DNA from: a phage
Direction: 5' to 3' (one strand)
Sequence record: PV889368.1
Length of the DNA stretch: 40,015 nt
In this document: one piece after another, positions 29,049 through 35,839 of the stretch
Layout of the letters: the number at the start of each line of letters is the position of its first letter
How positions within the stretch are numbered: position 1 is the stretch's first letter
Position numbers and translations under genes: made by a program
The notes under the pieces: generated by a model
The model's input: the letters and a program-made list of their open reading frames with translations, nothing else
Told to the model about the DNA's origin: nothing
Database searches by the model: none

Positions 29049-31730
29049 TTAAGCGAATGCAAAGTCTGAAGACAAGATGTCTTCGATATTCAGTTCACCT
29101 TTCTTCGGAAGCTCAGGCAACTTGTCGCGCTGACTCTCGTGAAGCTGGTATTCAAACTGCTCGTAGAAGTCAAGCAGCACATCGTTGTCGCGGTATGTCT
29201 CTACCATCGTCTCACGGACACCACGGAACAGATACTCAGCGTCAGCCGGGATGGTCCCGAAGCTATCGTGAATCACTGCGAATGACATCACACCATACTT
29301 GCGGTGCGTGTGGACTACAGTCTTGCGGAGGTGGCTACCATCTTGTGAGTGGACGAAGTTCGGGCTAATGCCTGACTCCTGCTTGTGTTTGTCCAGCTCT
29401 TTCTTTGTGCCTTTGTTGACTGTAGGCTGAAGGTTGAATGACCCTAAGAACATCAGGTTCAGACGAGTGGTATCCTTCTTGCGGTATTCCTGCCATACCG
29501 GGAAACCATCAGGTGTGACCCAGTGTACCGGAAGGCAAGGCTTCAGGATTTCACCAGTCTTCTTGTCCTTCACTTCAGCAGCCAGCAGCTTGGCAGCGCC
29601 TTGAAGCCACTTCATCGCGTCAACCGCAGCAACTACGGTCACACTCACAGCCTCCCAAATCATCTTGGCCATGAAGCGAGACGCTTGGCTTGGCTCAGTG
29701 AACATAGCGCCAGACCCTGAGTCAATCGCTGGCATTACGATGTCCTCGTAAACTTGGTCTGCGAAGCCGTACTCTTTCGACCCGTAGGCCAGAGTCATGA
29801 CCGAACGCTTAGTGACCTTGCGTGACATACCGTAAGTCAGCCACTGACGGGCCAGCTCTCGTGTCCCCAGCTTGAGACGCTCGGTAATCTCACCTGTTTT
29901 CTTGTCCTCGTGAGTCACCACCTCGTTGTCCGTACCGTTAACCAGCAGGACTTTAAGTTCCTCCTCAATGCGGTCGGACACAATGCGGTAGATGTCTTGG
30001 ACCTTACCGGATGGCGTCAGGTTTACTGCATGTCCACCGATGTGGTCACGAAGCATCGCGCTGAAGTGCTGAATCCCAGAGCATGACCCATCGAACGCTA
30101 TCGGAAGCGAGCATGAGTAAGACAATCCGTGGTGCATTACGCCAGCATACTCGAAGCAGAACGCAAGGAAGCAGAACGGAGAGTCTAACTTGCCCCACCA
30201 CTCAATGCTATCCATCGGTGCTTTGGCAGCAGCCATGATGTTGTCGTGGTTGTCTTCCACCCATTTGATGCGCTCCTCGAAGGTGACTTTATCGACACCA
30301 GCACAGTTTGCACCGTGGACCTTCAGCCATTTAAAACCATCAGCGCCAATAGGCTTGCCGACTGCCAGAGTCAGGAGACCCTTCTGCATGTCGTTGCCCT
30401 GAGGGTTGAACATCGGTACAGCGTAGACGCGGCCGCGCCAATCCATGTTATATGGGAACCATATGGCCTTGAACTGAGAGAACTTGTTTGCTTGGTTAAC
30501 GATAAAGCTCAGTGATAATCTGCGTGACTGTCTGGCCTTCTCGCGGCGATAGATACCAGCAGCAGCCTTCTTCCATGCCTTGAGTTCTTCTTCAGTCTCA
30601 CCCGCATAGTCCTCAGGCTTCAGTGGTTCCATCTGAGGGATGTCATCAATAGGCGTGTTGTTCAGCTTCTCGACCATGTTCACAACGTCCAGGACCTTCT
30701 TGTTCACTTTCCAAGGTGTACTCTGAATGATGTTCACAGCGTCGTAGACTTCAGGCATGTACACGTCTTCGTAACGTGCTACCGCAGACTTAGACCCTAA
30801 GCGAATCAGTGGTAATGGTCTGCGACCTTTGGCCCAATACCCACCACCTACGACACCCGTCCACGGCTTAGGTGGAACGACGCAAGGCTGATAGACTGGT
30901 GCGATACCCGCAAGGCTGAATCCACGTTGTGCCATCTTCTTTACCCAGAAGTCTGACAGGTGGACCATCTCAACGTCAGCCGCCGCATTGCCAGCACCAT
31001 AACGCTTAAGCTCAACCAGTTGTGTAGACTGAATGACAATCTCAAGCATCTTGATGCCAACGTGTACCGCCTCGGTAGGACTCCAAGTTCCCCAAGCATC
31101 TTCCAGTTGGCCCTGCTCCAGCATGGATGTCTCAACCGCTTGCATGTAGGCTTTCTTGTAGGATGCCCCGGCTCGCTTGTTCAGGTTCTCAGCTATCGCC
31201 TTCTTGAAGTGCTCCTGCTCCTTGTCACGGATGCGACCGAAGCGGATTTCATCTTCAAGAGTGCGACCTATCGCGGAGGCCATAGGTGTAATCGGTATCC
31301 CTTCAGGCTTGACCAGCTTAGAGAGAATGACCTTCAGTATGATAACCGCAGCAGACTCGCAGGAGATGCGCAGAGAGCGGTCCTTGACAGCCTTCCCTTC
31401 AGTGCTCAACATGGTGAACGCTACGCTCGGACGAGAGATTGACAGCTTCCCGTCTGTGCCTTCATGCCACTCCTTGACGGCTTGCGCAATCTTAGGGACC
31501 AGAGTCTGCATCAAAGGCTTGGCGACCTGATTGTCTGCCAGTTCCCCGCGCTCCGTCTGGCGCTCAAGGTTCTTGATGAAACGTCGCTCGCCTTCAGTGT
31601 ATGCCTCATGCTCAAGCTGAAGCTGTTTGACTGCAAGGTCTTGCCCGTAGTGGTCAGCCAGCAGGTTAAACGGCTCAATGGCGTTCGACACATCAGAGAA
31701 GTCGTGTTTGTCAATAGAGATGACGCTCAT
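29049..31730 (-). CDS. Single-subunit DNA-dependent RNA polymerase (gp1)
   Basis: Collinear with T7 RNAP across 893 aa, e.g. FSDV...PFN.LADHYG, RFGRIRD, PCVVPPKPWTG, AIWFPYNMDWRGRVYA, DGSCSGIQHFSAMLRD, VTKRSVMTLAYGSKE, HDSFGT, C-terminal FAFA. Confidence 0.97.
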   Translation of the reverse strand: MSVISIDKHDFSDVSNAIEPFNLLADHYGQDLAVKQLQLEHEAYTEGERRFIKNLERQTERGELADNQVAKPLMQTLVPKIAQAVKEWHEGTDGKLSISRPSVAFTMLSTEGKAVKDRSLRISCESAAVIILKVILSKLVKPEGIPITPMASAIGRTLEDEIRFGRIRDKEQEHFKKAIAENLNKRAGASYKKAYMQAVETSMLEQGQLEDAWGTWSPTEAVHVGIKMLEIVIQSTQLVELKRYGAGNAAADVEMVHLSDFWVKKMAQRGFSLAGIAPVYQPCVVPPKPWTGVVGGGYWAKGRRPLPLIRLGSKSAVARYEDVYMPEVYDAVNIIQSTPWKVNKKVLDVVNMVEKLNNTPIDDIPQMEPLKPEDYAGETEEELKAWKKAAAGIYRREKARQSRRLSLSFIVNQANKFSQFKAIWFPYNMDWRGRVYAVPMFNPQGNDMQKGLLTLAVGKPIGADGFKWLKVHGANCAGVDKVTFEERIKWVEDNHDNIMAAAKAPMDSIEWWGKLDSPFCFLAFCFEYAGVMHHGLSYSCSLPIAFDGSCSGIQHFSAMLRDHIGGHAVNLTPSGKVQDIYRIVSDRIEEELKVLLVNGTDNEVVTHEDKKTGEITERLKLGTRELARQWLTYGMSRKVTKRSVMTLAYGSKEYGFADQVYEDIVMPAIDSGSGAMFTEPSQASRFMAKMIWEAVSVTVVAAVDAMKWLQGAAKLLAAEVKDKKTGEILKPCLPVHWVTPDGFPVWQEYRKKDTTRLNLMFLGSFNLQPTVNKGTKKELDKHKQESGISPNFVHSQDGSHLRKTVVHTHRKYGVMSFAVIHDSFGTIPADAEYLFRGVRETMVETYRDNDVLLDFYEQFEYQLHESQRDKLPELPKKGELNIEDILSSDFAFA

Positions 31731-31799
31731 ACTTAAAGTCCTTGTTATTAGTCTTTCACTTAGAGTCTCTTTGGTCTTTCACTTGGAGTCTTAGACCTT

Positions 31800-31822
31800 G
31801 AGTCCTATAGTGATAGTTAAGT
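31800..31822 (-). promoter_or_regulatory. Phage RNAP promoter immediately upstream of the RNAP gene
   Basis: Minus strand GACTTAACTATCACTATAGGACTCAAGG, about 75 nt upstream of the gene 1 ATG; the leader carries a duplicated AAGTGAAAGAC. Confidence 0.7.
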
Positions 31823-31827
31823 CAGAA

Positions 31828-32220
31828 TTACTTGCATATCAGAGGGTTAGCGTGAAGATGACTGAAGTCACCGTGAGTCGTGTGCTTGATGGTCGACCGT
31901 TGGTCTATCGCCTTCCAGCCTGAGACCAGAAGTTTACCGTCGTCTGTGATTGGTCGTCCACCATACGCCAGATACATCAGCTCGGACTTATGGCCCTCGG
32001 CCCGGAGTCGTGCCTGAAGTACACGGTCTCGCTCCTGCTGTTGACGCTTAGTGTGTGATGAGTGGCGGTGTACATAAGTGCCCTTTCTCCCGGTCTTCTC
32101 CCAGTAGTTGCGGCCACGCGAGTCAGTTCCAACATACTTCCACTCTACGCCGTTCTTATCAGTGAATTTGCGAAACGCTAGGGTTGAGTCCATTGCGTGT
32201 ACCAGATTTAACATATTCAT
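31828..32220 (-). CDS. Hypothetical early protein (130 aa) where T7 has the gp0.7 kinase; no kinase motifs seen
   Basis: ATG with GGGAG RBS; TAATG overlap with the upstream ORF. Confidence 0.6.
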   Translation of the reverse strand: MNMLNLVHAMDSTLAFRKFTDKNGVEWKYVGTDSRGRNYWEKTGRKGTYVHRHSSHTKRQQQERDRVLQARLRAEGHKSELMYLAYGGRPITDDGKLLVSGWKAIDQRSTIKHTTHGDFSHLHANPLICK

Positions 32221-32417
32221 TACAGTTTACTCCCAAGTGTTGCTATATCCCAGACGTTCGCTAAGTTACGCGTGAATCGTCCGTTAGGTTGACGCACAGT
32301 CCAGCGACCCAGACGTGCATAGTTGAATTTATAGACTTTACATGCCTTGTTGATGTCTCTCACCAGCACGTAGGCGATAAGTCCATAGCCTATGGCTATC
32401 AATAGTGCAGATATCAT
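32220..32417 (-). CDS. Small early protein with an N-terminal transmembrane helix (65 aa)
   Basis: ATG start; hydrophobic N-terminus MISALLIAIGYGLIAYVLV. Confidence 0.5.
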   Translation of the reverse strand: MISALLIAIGYGLIAYVLVRDINKACKVYKFNYARLGRWTVRQPNGRFTRNLANVWDIATLGSKL

Positions 32418-32420
32418 AGC

Positions 32421-32588
32421 TTACCCCGCCAGTCCAATCCATATCAGTAGACCGCGCACGACCCCTACCGGAGAGAATATTATATCCACTGCCAGCCAGC
32501 CAAGACGCAGTGCATTCCCATCAGCTATGACCGCAGTCAGCCAAGACAGAATGATGGTGACGTAAAGTGCGATGACTGTAAGTTTCAT
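32421..32588 (-). CDS. Small early membrane protein (55 aa, two predicted TM helices)
   Basis: Not in the ORF track; ATG 32588 with AGGAG RBS; MKLTVIALYVTIILSWLTAVIADG...VGVVRGLLIWIGLAG. Confidence 0.45.
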   Translation of the reverse strand: MKLTVIALYVTIILSWLTAVIADGNALRLGWLAVDIIFSPVGVVRGLLIWIGLAG

Positions 32589-32594
32589 AGTTAA

Positions 32595-32660
32595 CTCCTA
32601 TCAATTTAAGTGATAATCTTTGAGGCCACATATCAGTTAGATGACCTCTCGTCTATCACT
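32595..32660 (-). promoter_or_regulatory. Conserved early intergenic element, copy D
   Basis: Shares ...gaggccac...atcagt...gacct...tctatcactc... with copies at 33045, 33785 and 34375; lies in the 5' leader of the downstream ORF. Confidence 0.4.
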
Positions 32661-32661
32661 C

Positions 32662-33039
32662 CTACACTTCCACTGCGATGGTTGTCATCTTGGTCACAGT
32701 AAGACCACCAGCAAGCTCAACAGCATAGCGTATCGCCTCGTCTTTGGACCTGAAATCTTTTCCAGCAAGGTGGTAAATATCGCCGTTTATTACTTTGGTC
32801 GGCTTGCGGCTGACTGCTATGGCGTTGCTGAGGGAAAGCTCGCCTTTCGACCACTGAGAGTGCCAGCGAAGCACGCTCTTACTGGATACGTTGAAGTCAC
32901 TTGCCACCATCTCAAGCATGGAGTCAAGTCGAGAGGTGCCATATTGAGGCTGGCGCACCAAGTCGTATGCCTGTGCTACTCGGATTTTAAACTCTACAGA
33001 ATACTGATTGCGGGTCTTAGGTTGTGCTGGTGTAAACAT
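32662..33039 (-). CDS. Early protein with a transposase-type helix-turn-helix-like N-terminus (125 aa)
   Basis: ATG with AAGGA RBS; YSVEFKIRVAQAY....YGTS......VSSKSVLRWHSQW resembles IS3-OrfA-type HTH (from memory, unverified). Confidence 0.55.
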   Translation of the reverse strand: MFTPAQPKTRNQYSVEFKIRVAQAYDLVRQPQYGTSRLDSMLEMVASDFNVSSKSVLRWHSQWSKGELSLSNAIAVSRKPTKVINGDIYHLAGKDFRSKDEAIRYAVELAGGLTVTKMTTIAVEV

Positions 33040-33044
33040 TTGGC

Positions 33045-33125
33045 ATTCCTTCTGGTTAATTTAAATTAAGTGACAATCAGTCAGGCCACCAGCATTGATG
33101 ACCTGTAGTCTATCACTCAGCGTGC
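33045..33125 (-). promoter_or_regulatory. Conserved early intergenic element, copy C
   Basis: ttaatttaaattaagtgacaatcagtcaggccacc...gacctgtagtctatcactcag. Confidence 0.4.
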
Positions 33126-33262
33126 AAGCTGCCGAGTATACTCTTGCGGCCCTTATAGACCGCTTTCAGGAGACGCATAGCCACATCGTGGTTTAACTGC
33201 CCGGTCTTGACCATAAGCCGGGCGTTGTTGACGTGATGCTGGCAGAGACCATAAGTTACCAT
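33116..33262 (-). CDS. gp0.4-like small protein (48 aa; T7 gp0.4 is an FtsZ inhibitor)
   Basis: Not in the ORF track; ATG overlaps the ocr stop (TAATG); MVTYGLCQHH...AMRLLKAVYKG..SILGSLHG resembles T7 gp0.4 ..VQYGLTAQ...AMAQLKELYEN..AIALESAE. Confidence 0.55.
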
Positions 33263-33771
33263 TACTCGCAGTCCTCTTCAGCAGCCGCAGGGTCGAACAC
33301 TACGTTATCGTTGACGTCTTCGACCTTCAGGTGGCGACCAATCGCATAGTGGTCTTTGGCACATGCGGTAGCGACCTCAAGAGACACAGCTTGCTCAATT
33401 ATTGCTCCTGTTTTAGCGTCAACTACCCAATACTCAGCCTCTTCGTCGCTCTCTTCAGCCTCAAACCATACCACATCCGAGCTATTAGACACATCGTTAT
33501 ACAGTGCCTCATAGATACGAGCTTGCAGTATACGCGTCACATCCTTGGTCTCAGGCATCAGCCCAGAGTCTTCAAACTCATGGTCAATACCATCAGCAGC
33601 CATCACCGTGAAAATCTCGTGGTAATAGTGCGGTACCTGACCGTCTACGACCTCATGCAGCGCATCATGGTAGTCGTCACCTTCAGCTATTTCGTCGTAC
33701 TGAATGCGCTCGTTAAATGCTTCAACAGTTGCAGCCAGCAGGTCATAGTATGCGCTAGCGTTACGTTCCAT
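33262..33771 (-). CDS. ocr: Ocr-like DNA mimic (gp0.3 family), 169 aa with an extended C-terminus
   Basis: [53 protein letters not shown] closely matches T7 Ocr [53 protein letters not shown]; about 50 aa longer than T7 Ocr (117 aa). Confidence 0.9.
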   Translation of the reverse strand: [169 protein letters not shown]

Positions 33772-33784
33772 AGTTATATCCTCT

Positions 33785-33860
33785 CAAAGTTAATTATGTG
33801 TGTGTTAGTGACTATCAGTCAGGCCGCTATGAGTCTAACGACCTGTAGTTAATCACTAGA
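33785..33860 (-). promoter_or_regulatory. Conserved early intergenic element, copy B (ocr leader)
   Basis: ctctcaaagttaattatgtgtgtgttagtgactatcagtcaggcc...gacctgtagttaatcact; near-identical to copy A. Confidence 0.45.
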
Positions 33861-34134
33861 AGGCTACATCTTTAAGCGCGTTCTTGAGCATGGTCTCTAT
33901 GTTTGAATCATTCACGTTGGTCATATACCCACCCACCTCTTGCACTTCCGCATTGTTGCTGGTGATTAATTCCTGCGCCTTTTTATGGCCCACTCCATGA
34001 TAGCAATCCCACACGAAGCGCTTGAACGTTAGACCCTTCTCTTTGTAGAGCGCGGCGGAGTCCGCCACTCCACGCAATAATCTTGATTCTAACTCCTTGC
34101 GGAAGGCGTCTGCTGTAGCTTTGTTCAGTCTCAT
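33856..34134 (-). CDS. Hypothetical early protein (92 aa) upstream of ocr
   Basis: ATG with AAGAGGA RBS, 12 nt after the upstream ORF. Confidence 0.6.
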   Translation of the reverse strand: MRLNKATADAFRKELESRLLRGVADSAALYKEKGLTFKRFVWDCYHGVGHKKAQELITSNNAEVQEVGGYMTNVNDSNIETMLKNALKDVAF

Positions 34135-34145
34135 AATGAATCCTC

Positions 34146-34352
34146 TTAGTAAATGTAAGTTTCGACACTATCAATGATTACGAAATGCTGTGGGCGGCGA
34201 CTATTGAAGTCTACAAGCATTACTTGCAACCACTTACCGTTAATCTTAACTTTGTAGTTAGAGTAAGCCTGGCCTTTAACCATATCTTCAGTAGTTACTT
34301 TAACCTTGCGGCATTCCAGTTTAACAGTCTTCTCTTTATCTGCGTAGAACAT
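34146..34352 (-). CDS. Hypothetical early protein (68 aa), first gene of the early operon
   Basis: Start moved to ATG 34352 (MFYADKEK...) with GAGAGGA RBS inside conserved element A. Confidence 0.55.
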   Translation of the reverse strand: MFYADKEKTVKLECRKVKVTTEDMVKGQAYSNYKVKINGKWLQVMLVDFNSRRPQHFVIIDSVETYIY

Positions 34353-34374
34353 ACTAAATCCTCTCAAAGTTAAT

Positions 34375-34450
34375 TGTGTGTTAGTGACTATCAGTCAGGG
34401 CCTTCAGATGTAGACTCAAAGACCCTGTAGTTAGTCGCTATCGGCGCACA
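34375..34450 (-). promoter_or_regulatory. Conserved early intergenic element, copy A
   Basis: cctctcaaagttaattgtgtgttagtgactatcagtcagggcc...gaccctgtagttagtcgct. Confidence 0.45.
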
Positions 34451-34697: not shown

Positions 34698-34727
34698 ATA
34701 CTACTTTAAGTCGGTACTACTTGTCAA
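34698..34727 (-). promoter_or_regulatory. Candidate host sigma70 early promoter (A-type), distal
   Basis: Minus strand TTGACA, 18-nt spacer, TAGTAT, then GTACCAC; same downstream GTACCAC as the proximal copy. Confidence 0.5.
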
Positions 34728-34939: not shown

Positions 34940-35460
34940 ACATGTATTTGACCTTAAGTCTATAGCTTTGTGTCTATTAACTGTAGGTCTTTGACTGTAG
35001 GTTAATCGGATTAACTGGTAGATGACGTAAGGTTGATGACTTGAGGTGATAGGTTGATACAGATAGAGACTCAGAGAAGACAAATAGTCCCAACCTATCG
35101 TCTCAGCCCCAACCGATAGTCATGACCTATCGTTGACCTGAAGTCTTGACCATCGGTCCAACCTTATGATAGACTGGGGTGGGCCTTTGGTCTGGACTAA
35201 AAGAGGGCCTATGGGGAGACTTGAGGTTCTTGAACTGTGAGATGTGGTCTCAAACTTTTGGTCCAAAACTCATCGAAGACTGTAGGTGGCAGCTACTGTA
35301 GGTCAAGGACCGTAGGTCAGGCGACACTAGGATAGACCAATAAGTAGGATGACCCTAAGTGAGCTTCTATTAAGGTGTTACCTAAAGTCCTTGACTACAG
35401 TAGCTAAGGTCAGTAGAGTGAGTCTTTATCCACGTACTGACCTTAGGTCTTCAGCCTTCG
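34940..35460. repeat. Non-coding region rich in short dispersed repeats; likely contains the genome termini / concatemer junction
   Basis: Many copies of CTGTAGGTC, ACCGTAGGTC, CCTTAGGTC, CCTAAAGTCC and similar within ~500 bp lacking ORFs, placed between the phiOR/19.5 end and the early promoters, as with T7 terminal short repeats. Confidence 0.5.
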
Positions 35461-35816: not shown

Positions 35817-35839
35817 CATCCCTATAGTGATAGTTAAGT
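35817..35839 (-). promoter_or_regulatory. Phage RNAP promoter (phiOR-like) near the right genome end
   Basis: Minus strand CTTAACTATCACTATAGGGATGGGGGG, flanked by the direct repeat GGGGGGACCGGGGGGACC. Confidence 0.8.

Follow-up and report, generated by a model that had tools for sequence, protein, structure and literature searches.

An optional early gene of a T7-like phage predicted to join a transposase-type helix-turn-helix head to a highly constrained C-terminal module

We describe here an early gene of a T7-like phage whose 125-residue product appears to join a transposase-type helix-turn-helix (HTH) to a C-terminal module of its own kind. The window, by which we mean the whole stretch of DNA analysed (40,015 nucleotides, record PV889368.1), is the genome of a T7-like phage, for the most part read on its minus strand, and the DNA of its early region is ~90% identical to that of Kayfunavirus phages, e.g. 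PE3-1. Residues 8–65 (the head) are supported, by homologue profiles and by predicted structure, as an HTH of the IS3 OrfA / HTH_Tnp_1 type, similar to those of Brinker and CENP-B; constraint is strongest on residues 66–125 (the C-terminal module, or tail); and the HTH-tail family, judged from the sequence collections searched, is a rare, optional, phage-only early gene. With moderate confidence, we favour the reading that the product is an accessory early DNA-binding protein, with a head that reads DNA and a tail for dimerisation or for the binding of a conserved partner, that it serves host takeover or regulation and that the basic lytic cycle can do without it. This reading is supported by a real, selected ORF, HTH homology, the charge pattern, the early position, the hairpins, the cassette indel and mosaicism. 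The gene, its parts and its neighbours are arranged as follows.

32662..33039, minus strand: target coding sequence including the stop codon, 125 aa, early accessory protein (from the ORF list, homologues and dN/dS)
32845..33018, minus strand: HTH head, residues 8–65, predicted basic three-helix domain of HTH_Tnp_1 / Brinker type
32665..32844, minus strand: C-terminal module, residues 66–125 (from alignment and dN/dS)
33047..33052, minus strand: ribosome-binding site GAAGGA, 7 nt 5' of the ATG (read from the sequence)
33113..33262, minus strand: candidate gp0.4-like ORF, 49 aa (phrog_5058, a family without assigned function)
33262..33771, minus strand: Ocr-like protein, 169 aa (Pfam ocr, E 9.5e-32)
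33856..34134, minus strand: early ORF, 92 aa, 5' of the target gene
34146..34367, minus strand: early ORF, 73 aa, 5' of the target gene
3' of the target gene, minus strand: two small hydrophobic ORFs, 55 aa and 65 aa
After these two, minus strand: ORF of 130 aa, the last before gene 1
29049..31730, minus strand: gene 1, T7-type single-subunit RNA polymerase

First of all, the gene itself is secure. The initial annotation had described a 125-aa ORF between a gp0.4-like gene and small membrane proteins, and this description is borne out: the minus-strand frame at 32662..33039 carries both of the segments quoted there, YSVEFKIRVAQAY and VSSKSVLRWHSQW, and is flanked by the 49-aa ORF and the two small hydrophobic ORFs. 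Codon-level comparison of eight phage genes, across which synonymous divergence is substantial, gives dN/dS of 0.2–0.5 for residues 8–65 and of 0.03–0.17 for residues 66–125; both halves thus lie well below 1, which identifies the frame as a protein-coding gene under purifying selection, and the 142-aa ORF on the opposite strand is its antisense shadow. Two observations concern the neighbourhood. The Pfam ocr domain spans only residues 7–96 of the Ocr-like protein, which has a C-terminal extension of ~50–70 aa (EYWVVDAKTG...DPAAAEEDCE) outside that domain. A gp0.7-type kinase is absent between ocr and gene 1 in this phage (31828..33262, minus strand) and present in several other carriers of the HTH gene, namely GW1, Dev2, SRT7, VLCpiA3d and the IMG/VR contig L020; the HTH gene thus does not stand in for the kinase and is not linked with it.

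Second, the position of the gene agrees with the early expression that the initial annotation had proposed, since it is found within the class I region, 5' of gene 1 and on the same strand, a placement that recurs in 10 other phages and had no exception among the phages checked. Sigma-70-like sites are found upstream of it at 34727..34698 and 35306..35279, with no promoter-like site directly upstream of the gene. The phage-promoter-like core ACTATCACTATAGGA occurs 12 times in the window (~1 expected by chance), ten of the sites being convincing and on the minus strand; those nearest to the gene are at 35820–35834, 5' of the whole early region, and at 31803–31817, just before gene 1, and none lies between these two. 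The PE3-1 equivalent of the latter site is annotated as a host RNAP promoter. Host-type promoters upstream, gene 1 downstream, a common strand and RNase III-type hairpins between neighbours make up a class I layout, which, read by the T7 paradigm, suggests that the early genes are transcribed by the host polymerase.

Third, the N-terminal segment, which the initial annotation had likened to the HTH of IS3 OrfA proteins, bears out this likeness for the family and not for the window protein alone, which reaches 13.8 bits (E 0.068, residues 8–70) against Pfam HTH_Tnp_1 (PF01527), where the gathering cut-off is 24.1 bits. Single-sequence Pfam and PHROG scans of the target protein gave no significant match, and homologue alignments are thus needed. 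Among the 23 aligned homologues, HTH_Tnp_1 is matched by 21 (E <= 1) and the Brinker DNA-binding domain by 13; seven relatives exceed the cut-off (P0039, 40.4 bits; P0034, 34.1; P0046 and P0054, 33.5 each; P0053, 29.0; P0025, 27.6; P0036, 25.0), P0033 is marginal at 24.4 bits, and P0034 also matches NCBIfam IS66 TnpA with E 4e-11. When the family profile was compared with 177,635 PDB sequences, it matched the HTH_Tnp_1-type structure 2jn6 (E 0.0013) and Brinker 2glo (E 0.0043); 2jn6 (Cgl2762, OrfA-like and of IS3 type) and 2rn7 (the OrfA of IS629) are solved examples of HTH_Tnp_1. The predicted fold of the head is a three-helix, homeodomain-like HTH. Profile search and structure prediction, two of the checks that had been suggested, both speak for the HTH, the former being significant at the level of the family; neither of the two outcomes that the initial annotation had named as refuting the HTH was thus observed.

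In its details, the head consists of an N-terminal arm, KTRNQYSVEFKIRV, and three predicted helices, with SKSVLRWHSQW as recognition helix and W59 of the third helix invariant in the widest alignment, and it is basic, with a pI of ~10 and a net charge between +4 and +6 in six members. In distant members, the same tail is preceded by two HTH units, an arrangement that resembles the bipartite DNA-binding domains of transposases, and the sole PADLOC match is a 21-residue HTH stretch in one distant member. Two truncated variants from metagenome contigs, P0027 and P0030, are frameshifted exactly at the boundary between head and C-terminal module (after K/R-G-E), which could be due to sequencing error or a mutational hotspot, or could mark natural head-only forms.

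The C-terminal module, rather than the HTH, is the best-conserved and probably the key part of the protein. It is laid out as a linker helix, GELSLSNAIAVSRKP, a β-hairpin at residues 89–96, a helix at 99–109 and a β-prone tail, LTVTKMTTIAVEV, which is unstructured in the monomer models (pLDDT 40–67), and its core motif reads Y-x-L-x-G-K-x-F-x-S-K-x-E-A-I-R-Y-A-V-E-L-x-G-G-L-T-V...V-E-V. In alignment A1, 28 of its 60 columns are invariant while the heads of the same sequences are 35–60% identical; in the C-terminal part of the widest alignment, invariance is confined to Y89, F96, V107, G111 and G112. Its charge is near neutral (net −2 to +2). Searches with the module against Pfam, PHROG and PDB gave no significant match. 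The candidates returned all fall short: the PDB profile look-alikes MBD2, PRP24 RRM (E 1.6), NCK2 SH2 and a designed ferredoxin (E 0.2) all have E values of ~0.2 or worse, Pfam NDUS4 is sub-threshold, and DUF2188 (PF09954) reaches, with the window module, 12.9 bits against a gathering cut-off of 22, over ~19 residues only. The sub-threshold resemblance to DUF2188 is the one hint that recurs, in 6 of 14 members, with a best E of 0.028; DUF2188 is an uncharacterised family reported from defence-linked operons together with HTH and peptidase regulators (bioRxiv 10.1101/2022.04.27.489752). An exhaustive HMM search with the module through 1.84 billion representative proteins returned 26 matches, of which ~16 are genuine, and the genuine ones are all small proteins in which the module is preceded by a single or double HTH unit or by a different short N-terminal fragment. 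The large proteins among the matches (P0035, P0037, P0040–43, P0045, P0048, P0051 and P0052) are beta-rich repeat or surface proteins that match over several short stretches, and all of them were rejected as spurious.

Genome comparison shows, at the level of sequence, that different phages carry swapped HTH heads on the same C-terminal module. In blastn, the window gene aligns with the TM1/SH3/GW1 type through its C-terminal half alone, and synonymous divergence exceeds 2 in the head (saturated) and is 0.85–1.3 in the tail; a saturated head beside a less diverged tail thus points to at least four head variants on essentially one tail. The HTH allele of the window is common to only two genomes, which are very similar to each other. 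Outside HTH genes, the tail is found fused to Ocr (IMEP24), to a fragment of SAMase (Dev2 gp0.2) and to a gp0.4-like protein (P0031), as well as standing alone as a 56-aa ORF (P0032). Several phages thus keep the tail only, fused to other fragments, so that the tail may do its work, whatever this is, without the HTH. In these fusion proteins, the dN/dS of the tails is low but the divergence is not assignable to the period after fusion, and the fusions may be functional or may be recent deletion remnants. In the Escherichia phage IMEP24 (MZ648215.1, 1275–1835), one CDS contains Ocr (~residues 1–128) in frame with the module, having arisen by a deletion equivalent to window positions 32826–33368. 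In the Cronobacter phage Dev2 (NC_023558.1, 759–1076), gp0.2 begins with the N-terminal ~45 residues from a T3-type SAMase and continues into the module, whose DNA is near-identical to that of the GW1 module, with 2 synonymous differences.

These data bear directly on the main alternative, which we consider unlikely overall, namely that the protein is centred on its tail, which would bind a conserved host protein (as an inhibitor or in counter-defence), with a head that localises it, modulates it or is dispensable. The conservation of the tail, which exceeds that of the head supposed to read DNA, fits such a function at least as well as it fits a classical repressor: the tail has the lower dN/dS of the two halves while its synonymous sites vary freely, it persists nearly unchanged and in frame in IMEP24, Dev2 gp0.2, P0031 and P0032, its charge is near neutral, and its invariant β-prone end is of low confidence in the monomer models. 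It is also general knowledge that T7 class I genes typically encode host inhibitors or anti-defence proteins. On the other hand, the fusions that speak for this alternative may be recent remnants of deletions, as the mere 2 synonymous changes between Dev2 and GW1 illustrate, and the protein and tblastn searches are biased towards in-frame remnants; PADLOC offers no lead, and one or two HTH units are kept in nearly all full-length members. A bolder version, which we regard as speculative and improbable, would see in the module an effector domain that is new and confined to phages, perhaps very distantly related to DUF2188, and that docks on a conserved host or defence protein and is tethered to DNA loci by interchangeable HTH heads. 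If true, the family would be a modular 'address plus warhead' factor for takeover or counter-defence, one that could work even with the warhead fused to Ocr or other early proteins.

The gene is further distinguished by its boundaries, where the following elements were found.

33056..33122, minus strand: upstream two-stem hairpin resembling an RNase III site (repeat families D1/D2), overlapping the end of the 49-aa gene
32598..32664, minus strand: downstream paralogous hairpin resembling an RNase III site, starting at the target stop codon
33796–33862 and 34372–34444, minus strand: further paralogous hairpins between early genes
32662..33062, minus strand: indel unit relative to PE3-1 (blastn), comprising the gene, its ribosome-binding site and one hairpin copy

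Four paralogous two-stem hairpins, each of ~65 nt, thus lie between the minus-strand early genes. The two that flank the target gene fold with −24.9 kcal/mol (33056..33122) and −19.6 kcal/mol (32598..32664), each with z −2.5, and the consensus structure of the four copies has 20 pairs, 7 of them with compensatory changes. They match no Rfam family. The early transcript of T7 has RNase III processing sites, and the four hairpins look, in shape and position, like predicted sites of this type; their putative role in processing draws on this analogy together with the conservation of structure. They also seem to mark where gene cassettes begin and end. In the closest relative, PE3-1, the corresponding slot is annotated as empty of genes, and in blastn window 32414–32661 aligns with positions 1301–1549 of the PE3-1 locus and window 33063–33282 with 1491–1713, so that both window copies correspond to one and the same PE3-1 hairpin, without any intervening sequence. 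One hairpin in place of two, with no gene, thus makes the unit 32662–33062 an optional cassette, and the simplest reading of the indel boundaries is that the cassette is gained and lost by recombination between the flanking hairpins. Elsewhere in the early region, tandem 21-nt direct repeats (TTAGTCTTTCACTTAGAGTCT / TTGGTCTTTCACTTGGAGTCT) lie at 31748–31791, between the 130-aa gene and gene 1, and the region 5' of gene 1 (31731–31830) folds no better than shuffled sequence (z −0.4).

The distribution of the family is narrow. A tblastn search found homologues in 24 of 50,697 phage records, with T7 and T3 absent among these carriers, and further homologues occur in 31 protein clusters from metagenomes; the target protein matches no PHROG family at E <= 0.01, and it thus lies, as had been proposed, outside the canonical T7 early set. 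The carriers are without exception Autographiviridae, with genomes of ~39–44 kb, and represent at least five genera, most of the records belonging to Kayfunavirus; the gene is always in the early region. Its place there varies: it is the first gene, ahead of ocr, in the Przondovirus VLCpiA3d, lies directly ahead of the 0.7-type kinase in the Foetvirus SRT7 and ahead of the kinase in GW1, and follows the candidate gp0.4-like gene in the window. Its form varies too, with a 203-aa version that has an extra N-terminal region in the Pectobacterium phages JJY1 and ZXLW2, a two-HTH version downstream of a SAMase gene and just before a kinase gene in the IMG/VR contig L020, and a homologue with a divergent tail in the Phimunavirus Phoria. 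No neighbouring gene is conserved across the carriers, which argues against a dedicated partner encoded nearby. No relative was found in a pattern scan of 185,579 species-representative bacterial and archaeal genomes (GTDB) or in 72,556 plasmids, and no similar DNA in 5,426 complete E. coli genomes; the gene is thus not a recently captured fragment of an insertion sequence.

Under the reading we favour, that of an accessory early DNA-binding protein, the following course of events may be envisaged. The gene, from its position, would be transcribed by the host RNA polymerase within the class I transcript in the first minutes of infection, and cleavage by RNase III at both flanking hairpins would probably release it as its own mRNA. 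The HTH head would use its N-terminal arm and the third helix to contact DNA, presumably in a sequence-specific manner, while the near-invariant, near-neutral module of β-hairpin, helix and β-strand would pair two subunits or hold a conserved partner protein. The likely job would be takeover of the host or regulation, on host or phage DNA, and would be dispensable for the basic lytic cycle. In the literature, we found no functional or DNA-binding study of any member of the family.

The same distribution informs the remaining alternatives. One, quite improbable in our judgement, is that the protein mimics an antitoxin or a defence regulator, its DNA-binding head and a neutralising tail being directed against a toxin–antitoxin or abortive-infection module of the host. 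Many antitoxins consist of a DNA-binding domain and a small C-terminal domain, which the layout of head and small tail resembles; the positionally assigned early expression, the adjacency to the anti-restriction gene for Ocr or SAMase in some genomes and the DUF2188 likeness of the tail would also fit. However, that likeness stays below threshold (12.9 bits against 22), no antitoxin family is matched in Pfam or NCBIfam and no useful match was returned by PADLOC, and the bacterial genomes, plasmids and E. coli chromosomes searched hold no homologue to be mimicked.

An RNA-binding role, in which the tail would act as a half-RRM or an L23-like β-α-β unit on early mRNAs or hairpins, is very improbable: it could be read from the weak PDB look-alikes PRP24 RRM and de novo designed ferredoxin, from a match of P0034 to ribosomal protein L23 in NCBIfam (E 0.021) and from the location of the gene between structured RNA hairpins, but all of these look-alikes fall short of significance, the tail is near neutral rather than basic, and the aromatic residues of the RNP motif are not conserved except Y89 and F96. 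Equally hard to credit is an insertion-sequence remnant or selfish cassette useless to the phage, with the HTH as a leftover OrfA and the flanking repeats as traces of insertion, since, against the homology of the HTH to IS3/IS66 accessory proteins, the name 'Transposase' given in UniProt to the homologues of SFPH2 and Phoria and the presence/absence polymorphism with flanking direct repeats, there stand the lack of a nearby DDE or other catalytic ORF and of terminal inverted repeats, flanking repeats that are ordinary intergenic hairpins also found between other early genes, purifying selection on both halves, the empty searches of E. coli, plasmid and species-representative genomes, and the conservation of the family, always in the early region, across its Autographiviridae genera.

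T7-like phages are the best-understood lytic phages, and their variable early genes keep yielding functions in host takeover and counter-defence, for which this family is an easily testable candidate. Cassette boundaries of the RNase III hairpin type make the gene easy to add or remove, and natural pairs with and without it (this phage and PE3-1-like phages) would allow a direct functional comparison. Database labels on its members, i.e. 'Transposase' (UniProt), 'SAM-dependent methyltransferase' (Dev2 gp0.2), 'DNA mimic ocr' (IMEP24) and 'F-box domain-containing protein', are misleading, including for safety screens in phage therapy that flag transposases.

How, then, does the protein compare with known systems? 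At the level of the family, the head belongs to the same HTH class as IS3 OrfA and IS66 TnpA (PF01527). Unlike in the IS3 family, there is no adjacent or overlapping DDE orfB and no frameshift site here, the neighbours being phage early ORFs, Ocr and the RNAP gene; the C-terminal part continues in frame and has no conserved catalytic residues; and, in place of terminal inverted repeats, the flanks are direct copies of an intergenic hairpin, with no bacterial copies found. In the OrfA proteins of IS3, the HTH is followed by a leucine zipper, at a position that is occupied here by the β-hairpin/helix/strand module. The Brinker, CENP-B and Psq domains are alike in fold to the head, come from a different kingdom and context and say nothing on the tail; their likeness reflects an origin shared with transposase HTH domains.

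Other parallels concern function. Gp5.7 belongs to the core set of T7 and comes from a middle (class II) gene. It parallels the proposed role in function only, as a very small DNA-binding protein with which a T7-type phage acts on transcription, whereas the target is early, optional and of two domains; no sequence relation between them was detected in the PDB searches. Gp5.7 is reported as a winged-HTH protein of 7 kDa and as a repressor of host-RNAP promoters (PMC5569994). Aca-type HTH regulators are encoded next to anti-defence genes (PMC9410906), and the target is likewise a small HTH protein, which in several genomes shares its transcription unit with the gene for Ocr or SAMase. The analogy is functional only, the HTH being of a different class. 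Furthermore, an Aca-like regulator would be expected in a fixed place directly downstream of the anti-defence gene, with an inverted-repeat operator in its own promoter, whereas the target varies in position, before Ocr (VLCpiA3d), before the kinase (SRT7, GW1, L020) or after the candidate gp0.4-like gene (window), and has no promoter-like site directly upstream. Finally, in the PeSL model, genes of T4-type phages are shuffled at conserved intergenic stem-loops. Here, too, an optional early gene is bounded by paralogous hairpins, with clean presence or absence at one hairpin in the closest relative; the repeats, on the other hand, resemble T7-type RNase III sites rather than promoter-plus-stem-loop units, and recombination is proposed from the indel boundaries. 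The HTH class itself is known, and what is new here is the joining of a transposase-type HTH to an unclassified, highly constrained C-terminal module.
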